Shown here one piece after another: positions 5,320-59,028 of a DNA stretch of 64,000 nt. The translations under genes were made by a program, and so were the position numbers. The DNA is from Lentisphaerota bacterium (GTDB taxonomy: Bacteria; Verrucomicrobiota; Lentisphaeria; Victivallales; Victivallaceae): positions 4,980 through 68,979 of the forward strand of contig SUWD01000011.1 of assembly GCA_015061685.1 (NCBI GenBank). Reading direction: 5' to 3'. Below the pieces are notes generated by a model. That model was not told where the DNA came from and did no database searches. It saw only the letters and a list, made by a program, of their open reading frames with translations. Positions within the stretch are counted from its first letter, which is position 1; every line of letters starts with the position of its first letter.

Positions 5320-7404
5320 TTATTTCCCGGCGGCATTGACGATCTGCTGTAAAACCACTTTGTAATATAAATTTCCCAGATGGCCGCCATTGGAAAACCA
5401 GGTGACTTTATCTTTCAGCACCTCATCCAGCCAAATCCGCTCCTCATCGGAACAGAGGAAGTCGTCAACATTGTGGAACACCCGGATTTTCGGCGAATTA
5501 CGCAAAGTGTCCTCGATCGACCGCAAATGAGAATCGGCAAGAAGTTTCTCTGTACTCTCTCCCGGATAGCAGGGGGTAAGCAATTTGTACGCATAATCCT
5601 CGAAACTCACCTTGTCCAATTCCTTATACAGCTCCATCCGGCTGCCCCACTCATACGCCGGGAATCCCTCAAAAGGATTCTCCCGGTGAGCGGTGAAAAG
5701 CATCTCCCGCATGGAAAGTTTCAAAAACATTCCGGCTACCACCTTTGCTGTTTCCTCATCCACCGGCGGAATGAATTCCCGGAACTTTTCAACCGGAGTA
5801 TTTTCATCGACATGCAGATAGTGCGGCATCAGCTTCAAAAGCATATTTCCGGCAACCGAAATCAGTTTTTCCCGCATCTCGCTCTTGCTCCACCCGGCAC
5901 TGCCGGCAACCAGTGAATCGATTTTACGCAATGCCGAACCCAGCGAAACCGGAGGATTCACCGCAATGAAGCAAGATGGATTCAAAACCGGATCTTTCTC
6001 TTCCATTTCCGCCAATTTCAAGGTCTGGATTCCCCCCATGCTGTAACCGCAGATCACTATTTCGGGGGCATTTATCCACTCTCTTTTTTTCAAATCTGCC
6101 AGAACTGCCACGATAGCCTCACGCACTCTTTTGGCATCATCCGGCAGATAACCGGGCAAACGGCAGTTGCCGTCGGCAACAATGAAATTCCAATTGAATG
6201 TGCTGTCCAGCGTCAGCACCATGTACCCGGCATTGTTGAATTGTTCGGCAAGAGCGACCAGCGTGGTGTTGTTGAGTGTACCGCCGATACCGGAAAGCAT
6301 GATCGCCAGTTTTTCCGGATGCGGCGGAGAATTTTCCGGCACTTCCGGAGCTTTCCAGAAACAGTACCGCAATCCCGGACGCTCCGGGACAAGCTCGACT
6401 TTTCTCCGGTATCCTTCCCGGAGAAAGTCGCTGTTGAATATGGACAGCGGCATGTACCACCAGTCCCGGTCTTTCTGCACATTGAAAAACATCACCCGCA
6501 AAGAATCAGTTTCACCGCTCCGGGCGAAGAAGTTGTCCAAAGGCACATAATTGCCGAAACGCAGAAATTCAGGTTTGCCTGCCGCACTCCATTTGACCGG
6601 ACTTTCAACAGTACCTTTCTTATTTCCCTCTGCTTCAGCTTGTTTTTTGTATTCATCAAGCTGCCGCATCGCCTCTTTGTAGAACCACATCCGCAGCTGC
6701 AGTTCCCGGCGGACAAGCATCAGCTGGCGGTAATTTTTATATGGATCGGCCGCACCATCCACGATTCCGGCGTAACCATCCTGTGCGATGGTCATGCGAT
6801 TGAGAAATGTCGCATAACCGGCATAAGGGATATAGGTCTTTATATCAAAAGCTGTGTCAAACAGCAAGCCGATATGATCCCTGCCATTCAGCGACGGTAC
6901 AAGCGGCAGCATAAACGTATGCCCCGGCCCGATACCCCAGGTGTTGAATGCCTGACCGAAATCAGCTTCAGCAGGCGGAATGTACCACCACGCCTGTGCC
7001 ACATCAAAAATTCCGGCAATACCCAAAGTGCTGTTGGCAAGGAAACGTACTGTTTCCGTCCCGGCGGCTTGCCATTGGGCCTGCAGCAGAGAACTCACCG
7101 CCCTGCCGGGATATTCAAGATTGACACATACATTGTGAAAGTGTTTGATGAATGGTCTCGGGAAAATCGAAGTATAAACCCTTGCCAACGGATCAGCTCC
7201 GTAGGTCATCAGGAAATCAGTACAACCGAACATCGCCCGGTTGAAGCCCTCCATCGGGTCTTCTCCTCCAAGCATTATCTCCACATCAGAGAGAGTCCAC
7301 GCTTCCGGATGCTCTTCCGGATAACGGTCATAGGGATGATGACAGCCGCTGACGACCAATATGGTGATCAGCAGGAGAAAAGACCTGATGAAAAAGGCTC
7401 TCAT
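5320..7404 (-). CDS. lipoprotein with N-terminal MlaA/VacJ-like domain fused to a C-terminal alpha/beta hydrolase
   Basis: Lipobox LVVSGC. N-terminal block EGFNRAMF...LANSTLGIAGIFDVA matches the VacJ/MlaA lipoprotein family. The C-terminal half carries the nucleophile-elbow motif GYSMGG. Confidence 0.75.
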   Translation of the reverse strand: MRAFFIRSFLLLITILVVSGCHHPYDRYPEEHPEAWTLSDVEIMLGGEDPMEGFNRAMFGCTDFLMTYGADPLARVYTSIFPRPFIKHFHNVCVNLEYPGRAVSSLLQAQWQAAGTETVRFLANSTLGIAGIFDVAQAWWYIPPAEADFGQAFNTWGIGPGHTFMLPLVPSLNGRDHIGLLFDTAFDIKTYIPYAGYATFLNRMTIAQDGYAGIVDGAADPYKNYRQLMLVRRELQLRMWFYKEAMRQLDEYKKQAEAEGNKKGTVESPVKWSAAGKPEFLRFGNYVPLDNFFARSGETDSLRVMFFNVQKDRDWWYMPLSIFNSDFLREGYRRKVELVPERPGLRYCFWKAPEVPENSPPHPEKLAIMLSGIGGTLNNTTLVALAEQFNNAGYMVLTLDSTFNWNFIVADGNCRLPGYLPDDAKRVREAIVAVLADLKKREWINAPEIVICGYSMGGIQTLKLAEMEEKDPVLNPSCFIAVNPPVSLGSALRKIDSLVAGSAGWSKSEMREKLISVAGNMLLKLMPHYLHVDENTPVEKFREFIPPVDEETAKVVAGMFLKLSMREMLFTAHRENPFEGFPAYEWGSRMELYKELDKVSFEDYAYKLLTPCYPGESTEKLLADSHLRSIEDTLRNSPKIRVFHNVDDFLCSDEERIWLDEVLKDKVTWFSNGGHLGNLYYKVVLQQIVNAAGK

Positions 7405-9795: not shown

Positions 9796-11124
9796 ATGCC
9801 GCAAATGAATTGGAAAAATTTGCTTTCACCGCACCGGATCGGAACAGATGCACCGGGCAAGATCACCCCGGAAAGATCCCCTTTTCAACGGGATTTCGAC
9901 CGGATCGTTTTCAGCGGCAGTTTCCGGCGTTTGCAGGATAAAACGCAGGTATTCCCCCTTTCAGGAACCACCGACTGTCACACCCGGCTTACTCACAGTA
10001 TGGAGACCGGCAGTATCGCCCGCAGTCTGGGGACAGCCGCCGGGGTGTCCATCTGCCGCGATGCCGACACCGGAGGAGCCCATCCCAGTGATATCGGTGC
10101 TGCGGTTGCCGCAGCTGCTCTGGCTCACGACATCGGCAATCCTCCCATGGGCCACGCCGGAGAGGAAGCTATCCGCTATTGGTTTGAGAACTCCTCTGTC
10201 GGACAGGATATTGCAGCTTACATGAGCGACGCCGAGCGTGCTGATATAAGCAAATATGACGGCAATGCCCAGGGGTTCCGGGTGTTGACCCGTCTGGAGA
10301 TGCCTGACCGTCCCGGCGGGATGCAGTTGACCTGTGCCACACTGGGAACTTTTGCAAAATATCCGGGTTCTGCAAAAAGTGATTTGAAAAAGTGCGGATT
10401 TTTTCAGCAGGAAAAAGAGTTCTTCGCTGAAACTGCCGCGTCCTGCGGTATGATCCCGGATAAAAACGGGGAAAGCTGGAAACGGCATCCGTTGAGTTTT
10501 CTTCTGGAAGCCGCCGATGATATCGCCTATCTGACTGTTGACTTTGAGGATGCCCTGCGGCAGAATCTTATCGAATACTCCGAATTGGAATCGTATTTTC
10601 TTGATATCATTGATACGGAATCATCCCGTTCATACGTCAAGACATTGACCTCTTCCCGGAGGAAAGCAGAGTATCTCCGGGCACAGGCGATCGGTGTACT
10701 TGTCCGTTCTGCCGCCGATGAATTCATCAAAAATCATGAAGAACTGCTCAACGGCACCTGGAATACCCCGTTGACCGAAACGATCCCCCAGAAAGAGATC
10801 CTCAAAAAAATCCGTTCCCGCAGTGCCGAAAGCATATACAACCACCCGTCTGTTGCCGAAGTGGTCGGAGCCGGTTTTGAGCTGGTTATGGGTATGCTTG
10901 ATATATTCGTCCCCTGTGTCAATGAGACCGACCGGGAAAAATGCGGGGGCAAGGCCGCTTCAACCCGCAGCCGCAGGATTTCAGCCATGCTGCCGGAGAT
11001 CCTCCGCAACCCGGTACCGTCAAGTGCATATTACCGTCTGCTCGGTATTCTGGACTATATTTCCGGCATGACCGACCGTAACGCTGTTGCTTTATACCAG
11101 AAACTGAAAGGAATTTCACTGTGA
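9796..11124 (+). CDS. dgt: dGTPase-like HD-domain deoxynucleoside triphosphate triphosphohydrolase
   Basis: Motifs SPFQRDFDRIVFSGSFRRLQDKTQVFP, TRLTHSMETGSIARSLG and AHDIGNPPMGHAGE are characteristic of the Dgt/dGTPase family. The ATG at 9796 is the first Met before the conserved core. Confidence 0.85.
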   Translation: MPQMNWKNLLSPHRIGTDAPGKITPERSPFQRDFDRIVFSGSFRRLQDKTQVFPLSGTTDCHTRLTHSMETGSIARSLGTAAGVSICRDADTGGAHPSDIGAAVAAAALAHDIGNPPMGHAGEEAIRYWFENSSVGQDIAAYMSDAERADISKYDGNAQGFRVLTRLEMPDRPGGMQLTCATLGTFAKYPGSAKSDLKKCGFFQQEKEFFAETAASCGMIPDKNGESWKRHPLSFLLEAADDIAYLTVDFEDALRQNLIEYSELESYFLDIIDTESSRSYVKTLTSSRRKAEYLRAQAIGVLVRSAADEFIKNHEELLNGTWNTPLTETIPQKEILKKIRSRSAESIYNHPSVAEVVGAGFELVMGMLDIFVPCVNETDREKCGGKAASTRSRRISAMLPEILRNPVPSSAYYRLLGILDYISGMTDRNAVALYQKLKGISL

Positions 11125-13016: not shown

Positions 13017-13537
13017 AAAAAATCCTTCATACCCCGTTTACCCAAGCCGATATCATGGATTTGCACGCCGGAGATACGGTTCTGCTTTCCGGAATCGTTT
13101 ACACCGGACGGGATGCCGCTCACAAGCGGCTCTGTGCCTTGCTGGATAAAAATGAAGCTCTCCCGGTCGATCTCAATGGTCAGGCAATTTACTTCGTCGG
13201 CCCTTGTCCTGCTCCTCCGGGACGTCCCATCGGTTCGGCAGGTCCCACTACCAGCGGCCGGATGGATGCTTATTCGCCCCGGATCATTGCTGAATGCGGT
13301 CTGCGTGCCATGATCGGCAAAGGAAACCGGGCAGATTCTGTGAAAGATGCCATGCAGCAGTACGGCTGTGTATATTTTGCCGCCACCGGAGGTGCCGGAG
13401 CTTTGATTGCCAATTCCATTGTCAAAGCGGAAGTGATTGCCTTTGACGATCTCGGTCCGGAAGCGATTTACAAACTGGAGCTGGATTCTCTGCCGCTGGT
13501 CGTGGCGATTGATGCTCACGGAAAATCGCTTTATTGA
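13013..13537 (+). CDS. Fe-S type fumarate/tartrate hydro-lyase, beta subunit
   Basis: 174 aa with GxVYTGRDAAHKR and GPTTSGRMD motifs. It overlaps the alpha-subunit gene by 4 bp. Confidence 0.85.
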   Translation: MKKILHTPFTQADIMDLHAGDTVLLSGIVYTGRDAAHKRLCALLDKNEALPVDLNGQAIYFVGPCPAPPGRPIGSAGPTTSGRMDAYSPRIIAECGLRAMIGKGNRADSVKDAMQQYGCVYFAATGGAGALIANSIVKAEVIAFDDLGPEAIYKLELDSLPLVVAIDAHGKSLY

Positions 13538-14007
13538 TTTCCGGCTTTTTCAGGCAGCTGCATAAGTAATTCCCGGACACTCACACCGTCCGGGAATTTC
13601 ATTTCAGGAGCGATCTCTGCCATGGGTTCCAATACAAATGCCCGCAAATGGGCCCGGGGATGCGGCACAGTCAGACTGTCGGTAGATATTTTTTCGTTGC
13701 CGAAAAGGATTATATCACAATCCAGTATCCGGGATTCCCGGCTGCTGTGCTGTTTGGGTCTGCCGGCTTCAAGTTCGATTCTCTGACAAAGTTCAAGCAG
13801 GGCTTCCGGAGTACCGTCCCACGATCCGGTAAATGCCATATCCAGAAAATCCGGAGTTCCCGGTACACAATCAACTGCCGCCGAATGAAAAACGGAACTG
13901 CTTTTGATATTACTTACCCCGGATGCTGAAAATTTTTTCAACGCTTCAGCCATTGCGTTTCTGCTTCCCGGCAGATTTCCGCCAAGCATAATTGCTATTT
14001 GCTTCAT
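13531..14007 (-). CDS. folK: 2-amino-4-hydroxy-6-hydroxymethyldihydropteridine diphosphokinase
   Basis: 158 aa. The RILDCDIILFG...LTVPHPRAHLRAFVLEP motif is typical of HPPK. Its 3' end overlaps the convergent fumarase beta gene by 7 bp. Confidence 0.85.
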   Translation of the reverse strand: MKQIAIMLGGNLPGSRNAMAEALKKFSASGVSNIKSSSVFHSAAVDCVPGTPDFLDMAFTGSWDGTPEALLELCQRIELEAGRPKQHSSRESRILDCDIILFGNEKISTDSLTVPHPRAHLRAFVLEPMAEIAPEMKFPDGVSVRELLMQLPEKAGNQ

Positions 14008-14097
14008 AATTTTTTACATTTTCTGGAATTTTCAATATTTTTGTATTATATTATAAGGTATGCTATTAAATATGAATCTTTATAAGGTATTTTTCAA

Positions 14098-15066
14098 GTG
14101 TCAAATCTGTTAAAAGTTGTTTTTCTCGGTTCCGGTCCGATCGCGATACCGATTTTGCGGGCATTGGCGGCTGATCCGCGGATCGAATTGCAGGCTGTTA
14201 TTTCCCAGCTTGACCGTCCCGCCGGACGCAAAAGAGTGATGACTCCGACTCCGCTTACCGCCAGTGCCGAAGAAGCCGGACTTGAAGTTATCCGTGCCGC
14301 CGATGTCAATACTCCGGAATTTACCGGATATCTCGATTCATTGCAGCCGGATATGCTGTGTGTGGTCTCATTCGGGCAGATATTGAAGTCAACCATTCTT
14401 GCCGTACCTAAAGTATGTTGTGTAAATGTTCACGCTTCTTTACTGCCGCGTTACCGGGGAGCTTCCCCTATAACGCAAGCTCTGCTCAACCGGGACAGCG
14501 AAACCGGAGTATGCTTCATGCAAATGGAAAGAGGTTTGGATTCCGGACCGGTTTACCGCACCATACCGGTGAGACTCAAAGGCGTGGAATATGCTGATTC
14601 TCTTGAGATGACCCTCGGCGAAAAAGCTGCTGAATATGCCGCTGAAACTCTCTGTAAAATCGCCGATGGTTCACTTACTGCCCGGCCGCAGGATCCGGCA
14701 CTGGTCACTGTTTGCCGCAAAATTTCCAAGCGTGACGGCATGATCAACTGGCTGGACGATGCCAAAGATATCGAAGCTATGACCCGGGCATTTTTCCCGT
14801 GGCCGGGAGCTGCGGCAAAGTGCCGCAACTCTGCCGGAAAGGAGTTGAATATCTCCATTTGTTCGGCGAAATGCCTTACTGCCAGCCCTTTGCCTCCCGG
14901 TAAGTGTGCTGAAGTCTCCGGTAAACTCGTTGTCGGATGCGGCAAAAACAGTGCATTGGAAATCCATGAATTGATCCCTTCCGGCGGCAAACGTATGACC
15001 GCCGCCGCCTTCCGCAATGGAATGCGTGGCGAACTGCCGGAATTCATCCTTGAAGCGGAAATATAA
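14098..15066 (+). CDS. fmt: methionyl-tRNA formyltransferase
   Basis: VVFLGSGPIAIPIL N-terminus and NVHASLLPRYRGASPI motif. 322 aa. GTG start. Confidence 0.9.
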   Translation: MSNLLKVVFLGSGPIAIPILRALAADPRIELQAVISQLDRPAGRKRVMTPTPLTASAEEAGLEVIRAADVNTPEFTGYLDSLQPDMLCVVSFGQILKSTILAVPKVCCVNVHASLLPRYRGASPITQALLNRDSETGVCFMQMERGLDSGPVYRTIPVRLKGVEYADSLEMTLGEKAAEYAAETLCKIADGSLTARPQDPALVTVCRKISKRDGMINWLDDAKDIEAMTRAFFPWPGAAAKCRNSAGKELNISICSAKCLTASPLPPGKCAEVSGKLVVGCGKNSALEIHELIPSGGKRMTAAAFRNGMRGELPEFILEAEI

Positions 15067-15070
15067 TAAG

Positions 15071-16675
15071 ATGAGCAAAGAAATTATCCTCAACTGCGAA
15101 AAACTTGAACGCCGATTCGCATTGCTCAGCAACGGTAAACTTGAAGAATACAAGATCGAAAGGGATGATGATTCTCCCAAAGCCGGTGATATTTTTCTGG
15201 GCAGGATCATCAATCTTGACACCTCTTTGCAGGCGGCATTTATCGATATCGGAGCAAAAAAGAATGCTTTTCTCCATTTCAAAGAGATGCTTCCCGGAAA
15301 TTCTGAATTGGTAGAGCAGTACCGCTCCGATCTTGCGTCCAAAGAAAATGCCATAAGCACCAAACGGAAAAAACAGCCTTCCACCCCGGAAAATTCTCCG
15401 CTCAATGCCGAAGTTTCACGCCGGAAAAAGAAAATTACCATGGAGGATATCCCCAATATCTTCCATCCCGGCATGGAGATCCTCGTGCAGGTGGCTAAAG
15501 CCCCCATAAGCACCAAAGGAGCCAGAGTTACCACTGATATCACCATCCCCGGCAGATTCCTCGTGCTGATGCCTTACAGTGAACATATCGGATTATCTTC
15601 CCGGATCGAAGGCACTTCCGAAAGAGAGCGGTTGCGTAAAATCCTCGGACAGCTAGAACTCCCCGAAGGAATGGGCATGATTTGCCGCACCAACGGCGAA
15701 GGAAGAAAACATACCTTTTTCAAACGGGATCTGGAACTGCTCCTTGACTACTGGAAAAAAATCGAAAACGGCGTGGAAAGCCGGATCGCTCCCCAGAGAC
15801 TTTTTACCGAACCAAATCTTATCGACCGTACCGCAAGAGATTTCATGACCGATGAGATCGACGGTATCGTTGTCGATGATCCGGATGCCTGGAAGCATAT
15901 CAAAGATCTGCTCAAACGTGTCGGCGGCAGTAAACTTGCTTCCAAAGTCACCCGTTACAAAGGAGCCGCCCCCATTTTTGACTATTACCGGATCGACGAA
16001 CAGCTTACCACTGTTTTCCAGCGGGAGGTCAAACTCCCCGGCGGCGGTGCGATCGTCATTGATGAAACAGAAGCACTCATCGCTATCGACGTAAATACCG
16101 GCCACGGCAGAAAATTGACCGATCAACCGGAATTCATATTGAAAACCAACCTTGAAGCCGCCGAGGAGATCGCCAGACAGCTGCGTCTGCGTAATGTCGG
16201 CGGTCTGGTAGTTTTGGATTTTATTGACATGCAGTCCGCCGGAGACCGGGATGAACTTTACCGTTACATGAAAAAACTGGTCAAAGAAGACCGGGCAAAG
16301 ACCCAGGTTCTTCCGTTGAGCAAGCTCGGACTTATGGAAATGACCCGTCAGAGAGAACATGAAAGTATTCTCGATCAGGTCTATGACCCCTGTCCGTACT
16401 GCCGGGGAAGCGGCATGGTCAAATCCGCTTTGACCATGAGTGCGGAAATCCAACGCGAATTAAGTTCCGTTATGAAAGATAAAAAGTTCCGGGGCGTCGC
16501 ATTGCGGGTATTCATGCACCCCGATATCCTTGCCCGGCTCAAAGATGAAGATGCCCAGCTGCTCAGTGATCTTGAAAAAAAATATAAAAATGAACTCAGT
16601 TTCCGTGCCGACCCGTCACTGCATTATGAGGAATTCCGTCTGGTCGATGCAGAAACCGGCAATGATGTCAGGTGA
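15071..16675 (+). CDS. rng: Rne/Rng family ribonuclease (RNase G-like)
   Basis: S1 domain (GDIFLGRIINLDTSLQAAFIDIG) followed by the catalytic core (AIVIDETEALIAIDVNTG, GGLVVLDFIDM). The ATG at 15071 follows the fmt stop. Confidence 0.85.
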   Translation: MSKEIILNCEKLERRFALLSNGKLEEYKIERDDDSPKAGDIFLGRIINLDTSLQAAFIDIGAKKNAFLHFKEMLPGNSELVEQYRSDLASKENAISTKRKKQPSTPENSPLNAEVSRRKKKITMEDIPNIFHPGMEILVQVAKAPISTKGARVTTDITIPGRFLVLMPYSEHIGLSSRIEGTSERERLRKILGQLELPEGMGMICRTNGEGRKHTFFKRDLELLLDYWKKIENGVESRIAPQRLFTEPNLIDRTARDFMTDEIDGIVVDDPDAWKHIKDLLKRVGGSKLASKVTRYKGAAPIFDYYRIDEQLTTVFQREVKLPGGGAIVIDETEALIAIDVNTGHGRKLTDQPEFILKTNLEAAEEIARQLRLRNVGGLVVLDFIDMQSAGDRDELYRYMKKLVKEDRAKTQVLPLSKLGLMEMTRQREHESILDQVYDPCPYCRGSGMVKSALTMSAEIQRELSSVMKDKKFRGVALRVFMHPDILARLKDEDAQLLSDLEKKYKNELSFRADPSLHYEEFRLVDAETGNDVR

Positions 16676-39390: not shown

Positions 39391-39975
39391 TTATTTGTCA
39401 TCTGAATTTTTGGCAGGGAAGCAAACGAGGATAAAAATACCATTCATGGTGAAAACCAGACCGAAACCGAAAAAGAGCAAAGCGGCGATGACGACGCCAT
39501 TGACCAGCGGTTTGTGTTCGGTGAATTGGGCATGGATGCAGGTCATTGCTTCGGCATTGGCATTCAGAAGCTTCTGGGAAGTGGTAATGGACTGGGTCAT
39601 GCCCTGCGTGGTATCATTGATAGCCTTGATATTCTCCTGAATGAACTCCCGGAAGTCGATCACATACTGGCTGTAATCGCCGAGATATTTTTCCAGAACA
39701 GCAGGCATATTGGGGATTTTTTTACCGAGCTTGTTGAGGGATTCAGACTGTTTGGCGAGGGCTTGCGAGGTCAATTCAGAGGTTTTCAGAGCTGAATTCA
39801 TGGTGTTTGCAGTCTGCTGTGAAAGTTCTGCGGTGTGCTGCAGAGTCTGTTCCAAAGAAGCTTGGGTTTGTTTACAGCGGGGCAGGGTAAAGAGCAGGAC
39901 AACTCCGATGACGATCATCAAAGTACCGAGGGTGAATTGGGCGATTATCATGCCGTTGCGGAATTTGCGGTTCAT
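39391..39975 (-). CDS. hypothetical membrane protein with central coiled-coil-like Q/T/S-rich segment
   Basis: I chose the ATG at 39975, which is preceded by AGGAG. The longer 268-aa track ORF extends into the repeat element and is not credible. There are two terminal TM helices. Confidence 0.65.
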   Translation of the reverse strand: MNRKFRNGMIIAQFTLGTLMIVIGVVLLFTLPRCKQTQASLEQTLQHTAELSQQTANTMNSALKTSELTSQALAKQSESLNKLGKKIPNMPAVLEKYLGDYSQYVIDFREFIQENIKAINDTTQGMTQSITTSQKLLNANAEAMTCIHAQFTEHKPLVNGVVIAALLFFGFGLVFTMNGIFILVCFPAKNSDDK

Positions 39976-40088
39976 TTCAAGTCTCCTTTTTTGAAGTGGT
40001 TGTATAATATATTTTATACCGGCTGATTTAATATACCACCGCTTATCCCACATGCAAAATACGTTAACGAAAAAAGTTGTTTTTTTTT

Positions 40089-40642
40089 GATAATGTCCCA
40101 AATTTTGTGAAACCCGTAACAGGAGCTTATAAACAAACATTTTTGTTAACGTATAAAACATATCACATAAGTTGTGATTTGTCAACCCGGCAAACACGGG
40201 TTCGATGCGACCGGCTTGTCAGGGCGTAGCTTTATGCGGAGACTGATGGATGCAGTGTGAGGCAAGGTCGCGGGCAAATCAAGGCGGATTAGCAGGATCC
40301 GTCTTCGTTCCACTACGCCGGGACAAGGTGTACTATCCGTACATGACTGAACATAAAATCAAAGACTGCCTTACTCGCAGTCATGAGTACGGCATAAGCC
40401 GCACGGAATGGCGGAGAGCGAGGAGTGGCAACGGTAACGTTGCCACGGACAGCGTAAGCGAGGCCTCCGGAAAATCGACTGCAACCGCCGAGGGCGAAGC
40501 CCGAGCGGCGAGGCCGCTCTCCCGCGGCCGCAGGGAGATTTTTTGGAGAAGAAAGAGATTGCCCGCAATGCACCGCCGCCTTGTCACGGCGTAGTGCAAC
40601 GGAGACGGAAGGAAAGATTTCTCACAAAAAATAAGACAATAA
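40089..40642. mobile_element. non-autonomous MITE-like element, long copy (554 bp)
   Basis: It shares about 94-95% identical 5' (about 126 nt) and 3' (about 55 nt) parts plus internal blocks with 58718-58999. It is flanked by T8 direct repeats (40081-40088 and 40643-40650). The ends are imperfect inverted repeats. There is no conserved ORF. Confidence 0.7.
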
Positions 40643-40760
40643 TTTTTTTTAAAGCTGACGACAATCCGGTTTGAAAATATCAGGCTTTAATGCTATAGTA
40701 GGAGAAATGCCGTAAAAGGTGTATTTTTATGTATTTTCAGCAGAAGAAAGAGGTTGTTCC

Positions 40761-49937: not shown

Positions 49938-50627
49938 TTACCGCCGTGTTACTTTGCAGTTTTTCGGGAAAGCATCTTCTCCGACAGTGCAGTTCCGGGG
50001 GATGCTGACACTGGTCAAGCCGCCGCCGAAAAGCGTAAGAAATGCTCTGTCTCCAATGGAAGTAACACTGTCCGGGATGATAACACTGGTCAGATTGACA
50101 CATCCGTAAAACGCCCACTCCCCGATGGAAGTAACACTGTCCGGGATGGTAACACTGGTCAGATTGACGCATCCGGAAAACGCCCAGTTATCGATTTTTG
50201 TGACACAGGAGGGAATGGTTACTGAACTGATCTCTTTATTGGAACAGGAATCCAGAGTTTTGTTGTCTTTGCTGAAAGTTATCCCCTGTTCTTTGGCAGT
50301 TTTCAGTTCTTTCCGTTCATTGTAATTTGAAATGGCAAACGGCAGAATAATTCCCAGCACAATCAGAAAAGCGATACATGCTCCGGCAATGATCCATACT
50401 TTTGGGTTGTTTTTTCCGGTCTGTTGCGGGGACGGGACAGCCGGATTGCCGCAGGGATTATTATAAACTCCCGGTGTCGGCGGAGGAGGTGGCTGGATCG
50501 GGAGCGGGTTTGTGCCGCAAACAAATTTTTGCTGACACAAAGGACATTGCAATTCGATTCCGCTGTACCGGTTGTCAAAAGAAAGTTGTCCCTGACAATG
50601 AGGACAATAGATCATCTGTTCCGCCAT
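49938..50627 (-). CDS. zinc-ribbon / transmembrane / BspA-type leucine-rich-repeat protein
   Basis: N-terminal CPHCQG...CPLCQ ribbon, then a Pro-rich linker, one TM helix and 23-residue repeats of the form SVTIPDSVTSIGEWAFxGCxNLT. Confidence 0.75.
   Translation of the reverse strand: MAEQMIYCPHCQGQLSFDNRYSGIELQCPLCQQKFVCGTNPLPIQPPPPPTPGVYNNPCGNPAVPSPQQTGKNNPKVWIIAGACIAFLIVLGIILPFAISNYNERKELKTAKEQGITFSKDNKTLDSCSNKEISSVTIPSCVTKIDNWAFSGCVNLTSVTIPDSVTSIGEWAFYGCVNLTSVIIPDSVTSIGDRAFLTLFGGGLTSVSIPRNCTVGEDAFPKNCKVTRR
50056..50193. repeat. two tandem 69-bp units (about 90% identical) encoding LRR modules
   Basis: ATGGAAGTAACACTGTCCGGGATG(A/G)TAACACTGGTCAGATTGAC... occurs at 50056 and again at 50125. 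The period is 69 bp, or 23 codons. Confidence 0.8.
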
Positions 50628-57058: not shown

Positions 57059-58711
57059 ATGGCAGATTTTATTTTGATGCCCCAGATGGGTGTTTCCGAG
57101 GAAAGTGCGTTGCTTTCCGAGTGGAAAGTCAAAGAGGGAGATGTTATCAAACTCGAACAGCCGATTTTCGGACTTGAGACCGGCAAATCCTCCTTTGAAG
57201 AACTGGCGAAGTATGAAGGTACTTTGCTGAAGATCCTCGTTCCCGCCGGTGAAGAAGTTGCCGTCGGTGCCCCGGTTGCTGTTATCGGTAAACCCGGTGA
57301 ATCTTATGAACTTCCCGGTGCCGCCGGTGCTGCAGCCCCTGCCGCTGCCCCTGCTGCCGAAGCTGCTCCGGCACCTGCCGCTGCCCCCGCCGCCGCTCCT
57401 GCCGCCGCTGCTTGCGACAACAAGGATGTGAATTTCATTCTGATGCCCCAGATGGGTGTTTCCGAGGAGAGTGCGTTGCTTTCCGAGTGGAAAGTCAAAG
57501 AGGGCGATGTCATCAAACTTGAACAGCCGATTTTCGGACTTGAAACCGGTAAATCCTCCTTTGAAGAACTGGCGAAGTACGAAGGTACTCTGCTGAAGAT
57601 CCTCGTTCCCGCCGGTGAAGAAGTTGCCGTCGGTGCCCCGGTTGCTGTTATCGGTAAACCCGGTGCTGTTTTCTCTGTTCCCGGTGCCGCCGCACCTGCC
57701 GCTCCCGCCGCTCCGGCTCCGGCTGCCGAAGTTGCCGCCGCTCCGGTTGCTGCTGCTCCTGCTGCCGCCGCCCCGGCTGCTGCCGGTGCTGAAGTTCTTG
57801 CTTCACCCCGTGCCAAAAAACTTGCCGCTGAATTGGGTCTGGACATTTCCAAAGCCATTCCGACCGGTCCGGAAAGCCGCATTATTGAGCGTGATGTGAA
57901 AACTTTGAAAGCCACCGCCCCGGCTGCCGCCGCTGCTCCTGCTGCCGAAGTTGCCGCCGCCGCTGTTGCTGAAACTGCTCCGGCAGTTGCCGCCGCAGCC
58001 GAAGTTGCAGCCGCTCCGGAATACACCGAGGAAAAAATCTCCCGCATCCGCAAAGTTATCGCCGATAACATGCACAAATCTCTGGCGGATATGGCACAGC
58101 TTACCCTCAACCGTACTTTCGATGCCACTGCGATCCTTGAGATGCGCAAGCAGATGAAAAACGCTCCGGAACTGGGTCTGGACAAAGTTACCATCAACGA
58201 CCTCGTTCTCTTTGCCGTTGCCAAAACTCTGGTTGAATTCCCCGACATCAATGCCAACTTCATCGGAGACAAGATGCGTCGTTTCACCCACGCCCAGCTC
58301 GGTGTGGCGATCGACACTCCCAAAGGTCTGCTGGTTCCGGTACTGCGTGATGCCGACACCATGAGCCTCAAGGCGATCTCCGCCAAAGTCAAAGAGTATG
58401 CAAATGCCTGCAAAGACGGTTCACTTGGAGCTGACAAACTTTCCGGCGGCAGTTTCACTGTCACCAACCTGGGCAATCTTGGTATTGAGAGCTTCACTCC
58501 GATCATCAATCCGCCCCAGACAGCCATCCTCGGTGTTTGCGGTACGACGCTCCGTCCCCGTCAGAAAGCCGATGGTTCTGTTGAATTCTATCAGGCAATG
58601 GGCTTGTCACTGACCTTTGACCACCGAGTGGTTGACGGTGCTCCGGCGGCGAAATTCCTCAAAGCTGTTGCTGACAAACTTGAGAAATTCAATTTGATTC
58701 TTGCACTTTAA
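57059..58711 (+). CDS. dihydrolipoamide acyltransferase (E2) with two lipoyl domains
   Basis: Two lipoyl domains, each with the ETGKSS lipoyl-lysine context, separated by Ala/Pro linkers. It also has a PSBD (ASPRAKKLAAELGLD) and a catalytic domain with DHRVVDGA. Confidence 0.92.
   Translation: MADFILMPQMGVSEESALLSEWKVKEGDVIKLEQPIFGLETGKSSFEELAKYEGTLLKILVPAGEEVAVGAPVAVIGKPGESYELPGAAGAAAPAAAPAAEAAPAPAAAPAAAPAAAACDNKDVNFILMPQMGVSEESALLSEWKVKEGDVIKLEQPIFGLETGKSSFEELAKYEGTLLKILVPAGEEVAVGAPVAVIGKPGAVFSVPGAAAPAAPAAPAPAAEVAAAPVAAAPAAAAPAAAGAEVLASPRAKKLAAELGLDISKAIPTGPESRIIERDVKTLKATAPAAAAAPAAEVAAAAVAETAPAVAAAAEVAAAPEYTEEKISRIRKVIADNMHKSLADMAQLTLNRTFDATAILEMRKQMKNAPELGLDKVTINDLVLFAVAKTLVEFPDINANFIGDKMRRFTHAQLGVAIDTPKGLLVPVLRDADTMSLKAISAKVKEYANACKDGSLGADKLSGGSFTVTNLGNLGIESFTPIINPPQTAILGVCGTTLRPRQKADGSVEFYQAMGLSLTFDHRVVDGAPAAKFLKAVADKLEKFNLILAL
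57075..57665. repeat. in-frame tandem duplication of the lipoyl-domain coding segment (225-bp copies at 57075-57299 and 57441-57665, offset 366 bp)
   Basis: The two 225-bp segments differ at 8 positions, and all 8 changes are synonymous by my alignment. The encoded 75 residues are identical. Confidence 0.85.
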
Positions 58712-58717
58712 TCAATA

Positions 58718-58999
58718 GATAACGTCCCAAATTTTGTGAAACCCGTAACAGGAGCTTATAAACAAACATTTTTGTTAACGAGTGAAACATATCACATAAG
58801 TTGTGATTTGTCAATCCGGCAAGCACGGGTTCGATCCAACCGGTGGATGCAGTGTGAGGCAAGGTCGCAGGCATTTCAAGGCGGATGAGCAGGAGAGTAC
58901 TGAACGTACATGACTGCGAAAACGTCCGCAGATTTGCCGGGAAATTGCCCGCAATGCACCGCCGCAGGAAAGATTTTTCACAAAAAATGAGACAATAAC
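58718..58999. mobile_element. non-autonomous MITE-like element, short copy (282 bp)
   Basis: It is homologous to 40089-40642. It is flanked by the exact 8-bp direct repeat AATCAATA (58710-58717 and 59000-59007). The terminal 24 nt are imperfect inverted repeats (18/24). It lies between the E2 stop and the lpdA start. Confidence 0.75.
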
Positions 59000-59028
59000 A
59001 ATCAATAAACATACACAGGTGAATTATC

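Follow-up and report, generated by a model that had tools for sequence, protein, structure and literature searches.

The window, a 64-kb stretch of DNA from a Lentisphaerota bacterium, carries two copies of one short element that, judged by its ends and its target-site duplication, is very probably a non-autonomous MITE of the IS256 family. Elements of this kind are known, and the present one is a new, well-documented example from an uncultured gut Lentisphaerota. An earlier reading of the window from its letters alone (the sequence-only reading) had described a two-copy MITE-like element with no recognisable family. The two regions (copies A and B; Table 1) are indeed collinear, non-coding copies of one element, and two is the correct number within the window, where blastn (word size 7) and nhmmer detected no third copy; overall, however, the element occupies dozens of sites or more. 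The statement on family no longer holds, as the termini bear an IS256-family signature.

A repeat search of the window aligned 126 nt at 94% identity (40089-40214 with 58718-58843), as had been claimed for the first part of the element, and a further 56 nt at 89% (40242-40297 with 58839-58894). The cores and 3' tails are alignable as well. The claim that the last ~55 nt are ~95% identical stands once a 30-nt insertion in copy A (40580-40609) is removed, leaving aligned segments of 33 nt at 94% and 25 nt at 96%, but not for an uninterrupted tail. An nhmmer model of the element matches copy B over its full length (E = 1.8e-99) and copy A at model positions 1-199 and 222-281. The exact 8-mers reported on either side of each copy are present. 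The imperfect terminal inverted repeats are real too, matching at 18/24 positions over ~24-26 nt and kept at both ends of all complete copies, although the left repeat originally quoted belongs to copy B only, position 6 being a T in copy A. A T run makes the right boundary of copy A ambiguous by 1 nt; register with the other copies places the end at 40643, where a T replaces the terminal C. The T8 pair flanking copy A is a homopolymer and thus weak by itself, and it agrees with the 8-bp duplications of the other copies.

Table 1 Features of the element in the window, and target-site duplications of further complete copies on related contigs (contig named in the position column)
Feature	Position	Strand	Description
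Left target-site duplication, copy A	40081..40088	.	TTTTTTTT; homopolymer in a T9 run
MITE copy A	40089..40642	+	554 nt (555 if the end is 40643); canonical ~281 nt plus four insertions
Left terminal inverted repeat, copy A	40089..40114	+	GATAATGTCCCAAATTTTGTGAAACC; top IS256-end matrix score
Predicted sigma-70-like site, copy A	40157..40185	-	TTGACA-17-TATGTT with TG, outward from the left end
Palindromic module 1, copy A	40215..40246	+	CTTGTCAGGGCGTAG...GGAGACTGA; canonical copies lack it
Palindromic module 2, copy A	40298..40327	-	30-nt module, reversed; pairs with module 3 in the predicted fold
GC-rich, hairpin-rich segment, copy A	40350..40556	+	207 nt in place of 26 canonical nt; 3' hairpin, then a T run
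Palindromic module 3, copy A	40580..40609	+	inserted ~30-nt palindromic module
Right terminal inverted repeat, copy A	40617..40643	-	degraded relative to copy B
Right target-site duplication, copy A	40643..40650	.	TTTTTTTT
Left target-site duplication, copy B	58710..58717	.	AATCAATA; overlaps the E2 stop codon
MITE copy B	58718..58999	+	282 nt, canonical form; in the E2-lpd spacer of a 2-oxoacid dehydrogenase operon
Left terminal inverted repeat, copy B	58718..58743	+	second-best IS256-end matrix score
Predicted sigma-70-like site, copy B	58786..58814	-	identical outward TTGACA-17-TATGTT
Core palindrome, copy B	58831..58973	.	long, imperfect, ~55 pairs; arms invariant in all canonical copies
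Right terminal inverted repeat, copy B	58974..58999	-	reverse complement GTTATTGTCTCATTTTTTGTGAAAAA
Right target-site duplication, copy B	59000..59007	.	AATCAATA
Element termini			GATAATGTCCC...GAGACAATAAC
Target-site duplication	L029 6538-6819		AATTAATA
Target-site duplication	L029 10067-10349		TATAGTTT
Target-site duplication	L031 7827-8106		CAGAGTTT
Target-site duplication	L025 2144-2424		TAAAAATG
Target-site duplication	L023 3007-3229		6/8 matching

Copy A lies between a minus-strand gene for a 194-aa protein and a gene for a GH28 glycosidase, and copy B between the E2 and E3 (lpd) genes of the dehydrogenase operon. That both window copies sit directly upstream of same-strand genes could suggest an immobile, ancestral cis-regulatory region or a chance repeat. 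We give this next to no credence: the two downstream genes, GH28 and lpd, are unrelated to each other, copies with differing duplications occur at many unrelated loci, and relatives show the empty site. Indeed, the search for an empty target site that the sequence-only reading had proposed succeeded in the closest relatives. In the two lineages with the closest lpd proteins (91% and 89% identity), the E2-lpd gap measures 24 and 18 nt in 8/8 contigs; the closer lineage reads TAATCCATAAAT, and the window with the element and one duplicate taken out reads TAATCAATAAAC, a spacer of ~27 nt. The two sister species carry a single target copy, AATCCATA, at the copy B site. The element is thus absent from the orthologous position in these relatives; its presence there in distant relatives is what the earlier reading had named as arguing for an ancestral regulatory region. 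No copy was detected by nhmmer in the sister-species loci, of which ~35-40 kb of unique sequence was sampled. Copy B is therefore a clean before-and-after case of insertion into an operon spacer, polymorphic between species.

The 8-bp duplications recur beyond the window. Among seven complete copies, six carry a perfect 8-bp duplication that is AT-rich and specific to its site (Table 1), and independent copies thus bear out the target duplications claimed for the window pair. The transposition had been called recent, which is true in relative terms, the copies differing by about 6-10%. One junction is of another sort: a copy at L025 2120-2430 (L025c) has a 16-nt duplication, TAAAAATGAATACTGT, which overlaps the first bases of the element itself and takes in the start and first codons of the MFS transporter gene that follows; it is not accounted for by a simple 8-bp stagger.

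Further copies, which the earlier reading had also suggested looking for, proved numerous. Open reading frames (ORFs) that happen to cross the element were used as search handles. The 114-aa ORF of copy A (40250-40594), which does end after 13 codons in copy B as had been stated, led to 4 protein clusters, which contain, among others, two proteins from a Lentisphaerota MAG at NCBI. A 113-aa minus-strand ORF across copy B led to 27 more clusters, one of them from a second MAG, annotated Lentisphaeria. None of these 31 clusters has a Pfam domain, and the ORFs across the element vary between copies and have no capacity to encode a transposase. In total, at least 25 insertion sites were found in related metagenome contigs and the two MAGs. 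DNA-level inspection covered at least 11 copies from separate sites, and the element-crossing ORFs, which diverge in sequence exactly where they exit the element, revealed a minimum of 20 other flanks. The contigs reached via these proteins (L023-L034) hold complete and truncated copies, two copies in tandem, a 66-nt mini-element and a solo core. With the copy that led to each locus left out, there are ~10 copies or fragments in roughly 150 kb, which suggests of the order of a hundred copies, or more, in each genome, a rough figure pooled over several strains. Genome and metagenome contigs searched with a 19-20-mer from the left arm (the element's most variable spacer) yielded chance matches only (L001-L004), the viral contigs scanned gave only three chance matches in AT-rich phage DNA (L043-L045), and blastn against plasmids and phages gave no match.

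Metagenome contigs that encode identical lpd or GH28 proteins very often start within the element, which marks it as a repeat that breaks assemblies. Copy B is present in all 10 of the listed contigs encoding the identical lpd. Where contigs with different flanks meet at the element, some may be assembly chimeras. The copy at L028 2173-2844 has the left flank and most of copy A (window 40089-40642) in identical form and a partly duplicated hairpin-rich segment, while its right flank comes from a different locus, at the 3' end of PEPCK, and carries no matching duplication; either copies have recombined here or the assembly is chimeric.

Several other arrangements were observed. At L023 9747-10555, and also in L025, L026 and L027, two element copies lie head to tail with only a T6 spacer between them, and the first copy of the L023 pair has a variant right end (...TTTCTCTCCAAAAAAC). 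In L025, T9 lies between a 3' element fragment and a full copy. L023 10581-11351, downstream of the tandem pair, encodes a 256-aa protein with His-Asn and Asn-Ala-Thr repeats and no Pfam match. Several contigs end inside this gene, which looks like a second strain-variable, assembly-breaking repeat. We considered it as cargo or a transposase and dropped the idea: it has no transposase features and occurs at one locus, where the differing upstream flanks joined at the repeat are probably a product of assembly. In L029, complete inverted copies at 6538-6819 and 10067-10349 flank a single gene for a 1051-aa protein in the manner of a composite transposon; their 8-bp duplications differ, and the two were thus inserted independently. 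A solo core palindrome with neither arm lies at L024 2097-2240, and isolated pieces, comprising a 66-nt mini-element with both tips, left-arm pieces and a solo right tail, lie at L024 9266-9320, 347-399 and 7360-7440 and at L031 9327-9360.

The assignment to the IS256 family comes from the ends and the target duplication. The left end of the element, GATAATGTCCCAAATTTTGTGAAA, resembles the inverted repeat of IS256: an ungapped comparison with the IS256 left repeat gives 17/26 identical positions, as many as the two ends of IS256 share with each other. The IS256 end used here is 100% identical to a pTEF1 sequence ~100 nt upstream of the annotated IS256 transposase, and the same end serves as the inverted repeat of IS256/Tn4001 (PMC4045577). 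For a quantitative comparison, 15 diverse IS256-family elements were collected from plasmids (transposases 25-87% identical), and the termini were located by the elements' own inverted repeats in nine of them, giving 18 ends; seven of these nine elements have a perfect 8-bp duplication and one a 7/8 match. A position weight matrix built from the 18 IS256-family ends only was then scored against every 26-mer of the window on both strands (127,950 positions). The best site of all was 40089 (21.1 bits) and the second best 58718 (18.6 bits), which are the left ends of copies A and B in exact register. The matrix and the duplications, independently, thus give the same first bases for both copies. 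For scale, genuine family ends score 14-24 bits, the ends of a held-out IS256-family element, ISPsy17 (sequence from PMC3189936), score 19.9 and 13.3 bits, and the best unrelated site in the window scores 13.6 bits. The right ends match the family matrix only moderately, that of copy B ranking 7 at 11.4 bits and that of copy A, which is degraded, ranking 144 at 4.05 bits if the element ends at 40643.

IS256-family elements are described as having bipartite ends with a subterminal TGTAAA, AT-rich 8-bp duplications, and copy-out/paste-in transposition via circles (PMC7780238, PMC3189936). The element has imperfect repeats of ~26 nt, in which a terminal block (TGTCCCA) and a subterminal block of the TGTAAA type (TTGTGAAA) stand in register at IS256-family positions, and several copies carry an exact TGTAAA. 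Its 8-bp duplications, within the 8-9 bp of the family, fall in AT-rich targets. The end layout is common to IS256, ISCth4, ISPsy17, ISEc58, ISEf1 and ISRm3, with G at position 1, TGTC(C)CA at ~6-12 and a TGTG/TGTAAA block at ~18-24, and these elements and ours share ~26-nt imperfect inverted repeats and AT-rich 8-bp duplications. By contrast, our element has no transposase gene, spans 281 nt rather than 1.3-1.5 kb, and has an interior of its own, made up of a 143-nt imperfect palindrome and an asymmetric 113-nt left arm.

The sequence-only reading had noted that neither copy contains or neighbours a transposase, and the genes scanned agree. No transposase was found among 40 window ORFs (10 neighbours of the copies and 30 upstream of 37,948) or in the Pfam tables of overlapping contigs that cover most of the remaining window, and tblastn of 468 kb and the gene tables of related loci revealed no IS256-family transposase gene. 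An autonomous partner, the existence of which we infer, is thus hypothetical and may have been lost. The lack of a cognate transposase in the 468 kb, together with the modest matrix score of the right ends and a quantitative end comparison that covers the IS256 family alone, leaves a slim chance that the element is a MITE of another family that duplicates 8 bp (for example ISL3, IS1595, IS66 or IS6) and that its likeness to IS256 is convergent. This would have to be squared with left ends that take the top two of 127,950 places for an IS256-only matrix in a register set independently by the duplications, with two conserved blocks that are both at IS256-family positions, and with AT-rich 8-bp targets that fit the published behaviour of IS256 and ISCth4 (PMC7780238).

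If the element does belong to the IS256 family, its transposition pathway would, by analogy with published work on IS256 and ISCth4, run as follows. A transposase would bind the bipartite ends, at a terminal TGTC(C/T)CA (positions 6-12) and the subterminal TTGTGAAA (positions 17-24). The element would be copied out as a circle, which would be pasted in at a cut staggered by 8 bp in an AT-rich target; repair of this cut would yield the 8-bp duplication. Every event would add one copy, which would explain why copies are many. Copy B is the canonical ~281-nt form placed in the ~27-nt E2-lpd spacer, and copy A is a canonical element grown by three ~30-nt palindromic modules and the 207-nt hairpin-rich segment.

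The canonical element is ~281 nt long (280-283 nt) with copies 90-93% identical, and variants range from 223 to 672 nt. It begins with a left inverted repeat of 26 nt, which is followed by an AT-rich, asymmetric left arm that extends to position 113 and contains two small hairpins, a 143-nt imperfect palindrome, and a short tail with the right inverted repeat. The ~30-nt palindromic module of copy A (CTTGTCnnGGCGTAG...GAGACnGA) occurs three times there, in both orientations and with no flanking duplication. It was seen solely within element copies, and its presence varies between contigs of apparently one locus; module 2, for instance, is in L023 and missing from L025 and L026 at what is apparently the same locus. 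The 207-nt segment is shared with copies in L023, L025 and L026, is present ~1.5 times in tandem in L028, and has no match in Rfam. Two ideas on the element, a tRNA-derived or SINE-like origin (from the stretch GGGTTCGATCC) and an invertible promoter, were dropped since its anatomy is accounted for by the 8-bp duplications together with the IS256-type ends.

The interior of the element raises the possibility of a function beyond transposition. Parts of the inverted repeats are less well conserved than internal segments, namely a hairpin (ATCACA/TGTGAT) and the core palindrome's arms, a pattern not predicted for a purely selfish MITE. The predicted sigma-70-like site, which in copy A overlaps this hairpin, lies where the left arm is best conserved and is nearly invariant across copies. 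It could be a working promoter, and it could equally be an extra transposase-binding region, since this stretch repeats the TTGTGA motif seen in the inverted repeats. A plus-strand candidate picked by eye (TTGTGA-17-TATAAA) fails the promoter-scan criteria. An element of mobile origin may have been co-opted and now serve as a portable cassette, regulatory or RNA in nature, whose left arm provides an outward promoter and whose long hairpin processes or stabilises transcripts, with selection keeping it at some sites. Consistent with this are the minus-strand TTGACA-17-TATGTT with TG conserved in both copies, the invariant internal blocks with hairpin stems kept and loops varying, the very stable plus-strand folds of the two copies (z = -7.4 and -8.2), the location of most copies <150 nt from a start codon, and the fixation of copy B within an operon.

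Other data speak against co-option. Shuffled controls fold far less well than either strand (z = -5 to -10), and the two strands fold about equally well, as palindromic DNA should. Compensatory changes were found in 0/80 predicted pairs, which provides no evidence for a selected RNA structure, although covariation is uninformative among copies that are 90-93% identical. Rfam gave no match at or above the gathering score in the window and two tRNAs only in 90 kb of related loci, and E-value scans of both copies gave chance-level matches only; the housekeeping RNA family that the sequence-only reading had raised as a refuting outcome was therefore not encountered. The orientation bias is not significant (~10 sites), and the conserved blocks could be extra transposase-binding sites. 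We regard co-option as unlikely. A compound version, in which the left arm would hold an outward promoter, the 143-nt hairpin would act on RNA and the ~30-nt module would be a second-order mobile unit that makes no target duplication, appears to us just as unlikely. Were the promoter and the RNA-acting hairpin real, insertions would rewire the expression of nearby genes or make it more stable, the 2-oxoacid dehydrogenase operon being among those affected.

The hairpins also invite comparison with repeats that move as single-stranded DNA, either an IS200/IS605-derived palindrome with a guide-RNA scaffold or a REP/BIME-like unit mobilised by a Y1 transposase. The element is hairpin-rich, some of its loops are of the C-GAA-G or C-GAG-G type that is stable in DNA, its ~30-nt palindromic modules occur in both orientations, and mosaic variants exist. 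Repeats of the IS200/IS605 and REP/RAYT types, however, have neither terminal inverted repeats nor target duplications and insert beside a fixed short motif, whereas inverted repeats and variable 8-bp duplications are clear in 6/7 copies. No TnpA, TnpB or RAYT gene is nearby, and no HEARO or omega-RNA-type match was obtained from Rfam. Such an origin is highly improbable, and an IS256-type MITE is the reading we retain.

As a MITE, the element resembles MITEPsy1, MITEAba12, Correia/NEMIS of Neisseria and RUP of pneumococcus, all of which are small and non-coding, with inverted repeats, target duplications, many intergenic copies and strong folds. RUP and Correia duplicate TA. MITEPsy1 is IS5-like and has a 4-nt duplication, unlike the IS256 type and 8 bp of our element, which, unlike the other MITEs, has so far been sampled in one gut Lentisphaerota lineage only. 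In their modular variation, copy A and the L028 and L023 copies recall the mosaic repeats BOX of pneumococcus, BIME, RIME and enlarged ERIC variants, in which short palindromic modules are gained or lost at fixed internal positions. These are not known to have terminal inverted repeats with target duplications, and the element thus differs from them in showing modular variation within a bona fide transposon frame. Bacterial MITEs may contain sequences that resemble promoters, and they interrupt short-read assemblies (PMC3189936, PMC3184786).

The element leaves the current understanding of transposition unchanged. It is of interest as a non-autonomous IS256-type element that underwent a burst in the PVC superphylum, a group with few described mobile elements, and for its practical effects. 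In this Lentisphaerota lineage it breaks up metagenome assemblies, many contigs ending within it and some probably misjoined across it, and it yields dozens of spurious 'hypothetical proteins' in public databases. It can also serve as a marker for strain typing. Gene starts beside element copies are unreliable, as frames run on into the element: the frame of the 194-aa gene (window 39391-40197, minus strand) continues upstream without a stop across the left arm of copy A, so that a 268-aa ORF starting at GTG results, and in L029 another gene call begins inside the element.

Other features of the window were noted. The E2 gene contains an internal tandem duplication of 366 bp (57066-57299, 57432-57665; 96% identical) that encodes a second lipoyl domain and Ala/Pro linkers. 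An otherwise matching E2 in L010 has 428 aa versus 550, exactly one unit fewer, and thus either the number of lipoyl domains is strain-variable or the repeat collapsed in assembly. On the minus strand at 50040-50177, a 69-nt tandem repeat of two units (87% identity) lies within an ORF at the position of an LRR_5 protein called in L015. Finally, the HPPK, formyltransferase and RNase E/G genes at 13531-16675 correspond to L039 1978-5136, and the distance from them to the dehydrogenase operon is ~5 kb in the sister species versus ~40 kb in the window, indicating that the region was rearranged between these lineages.
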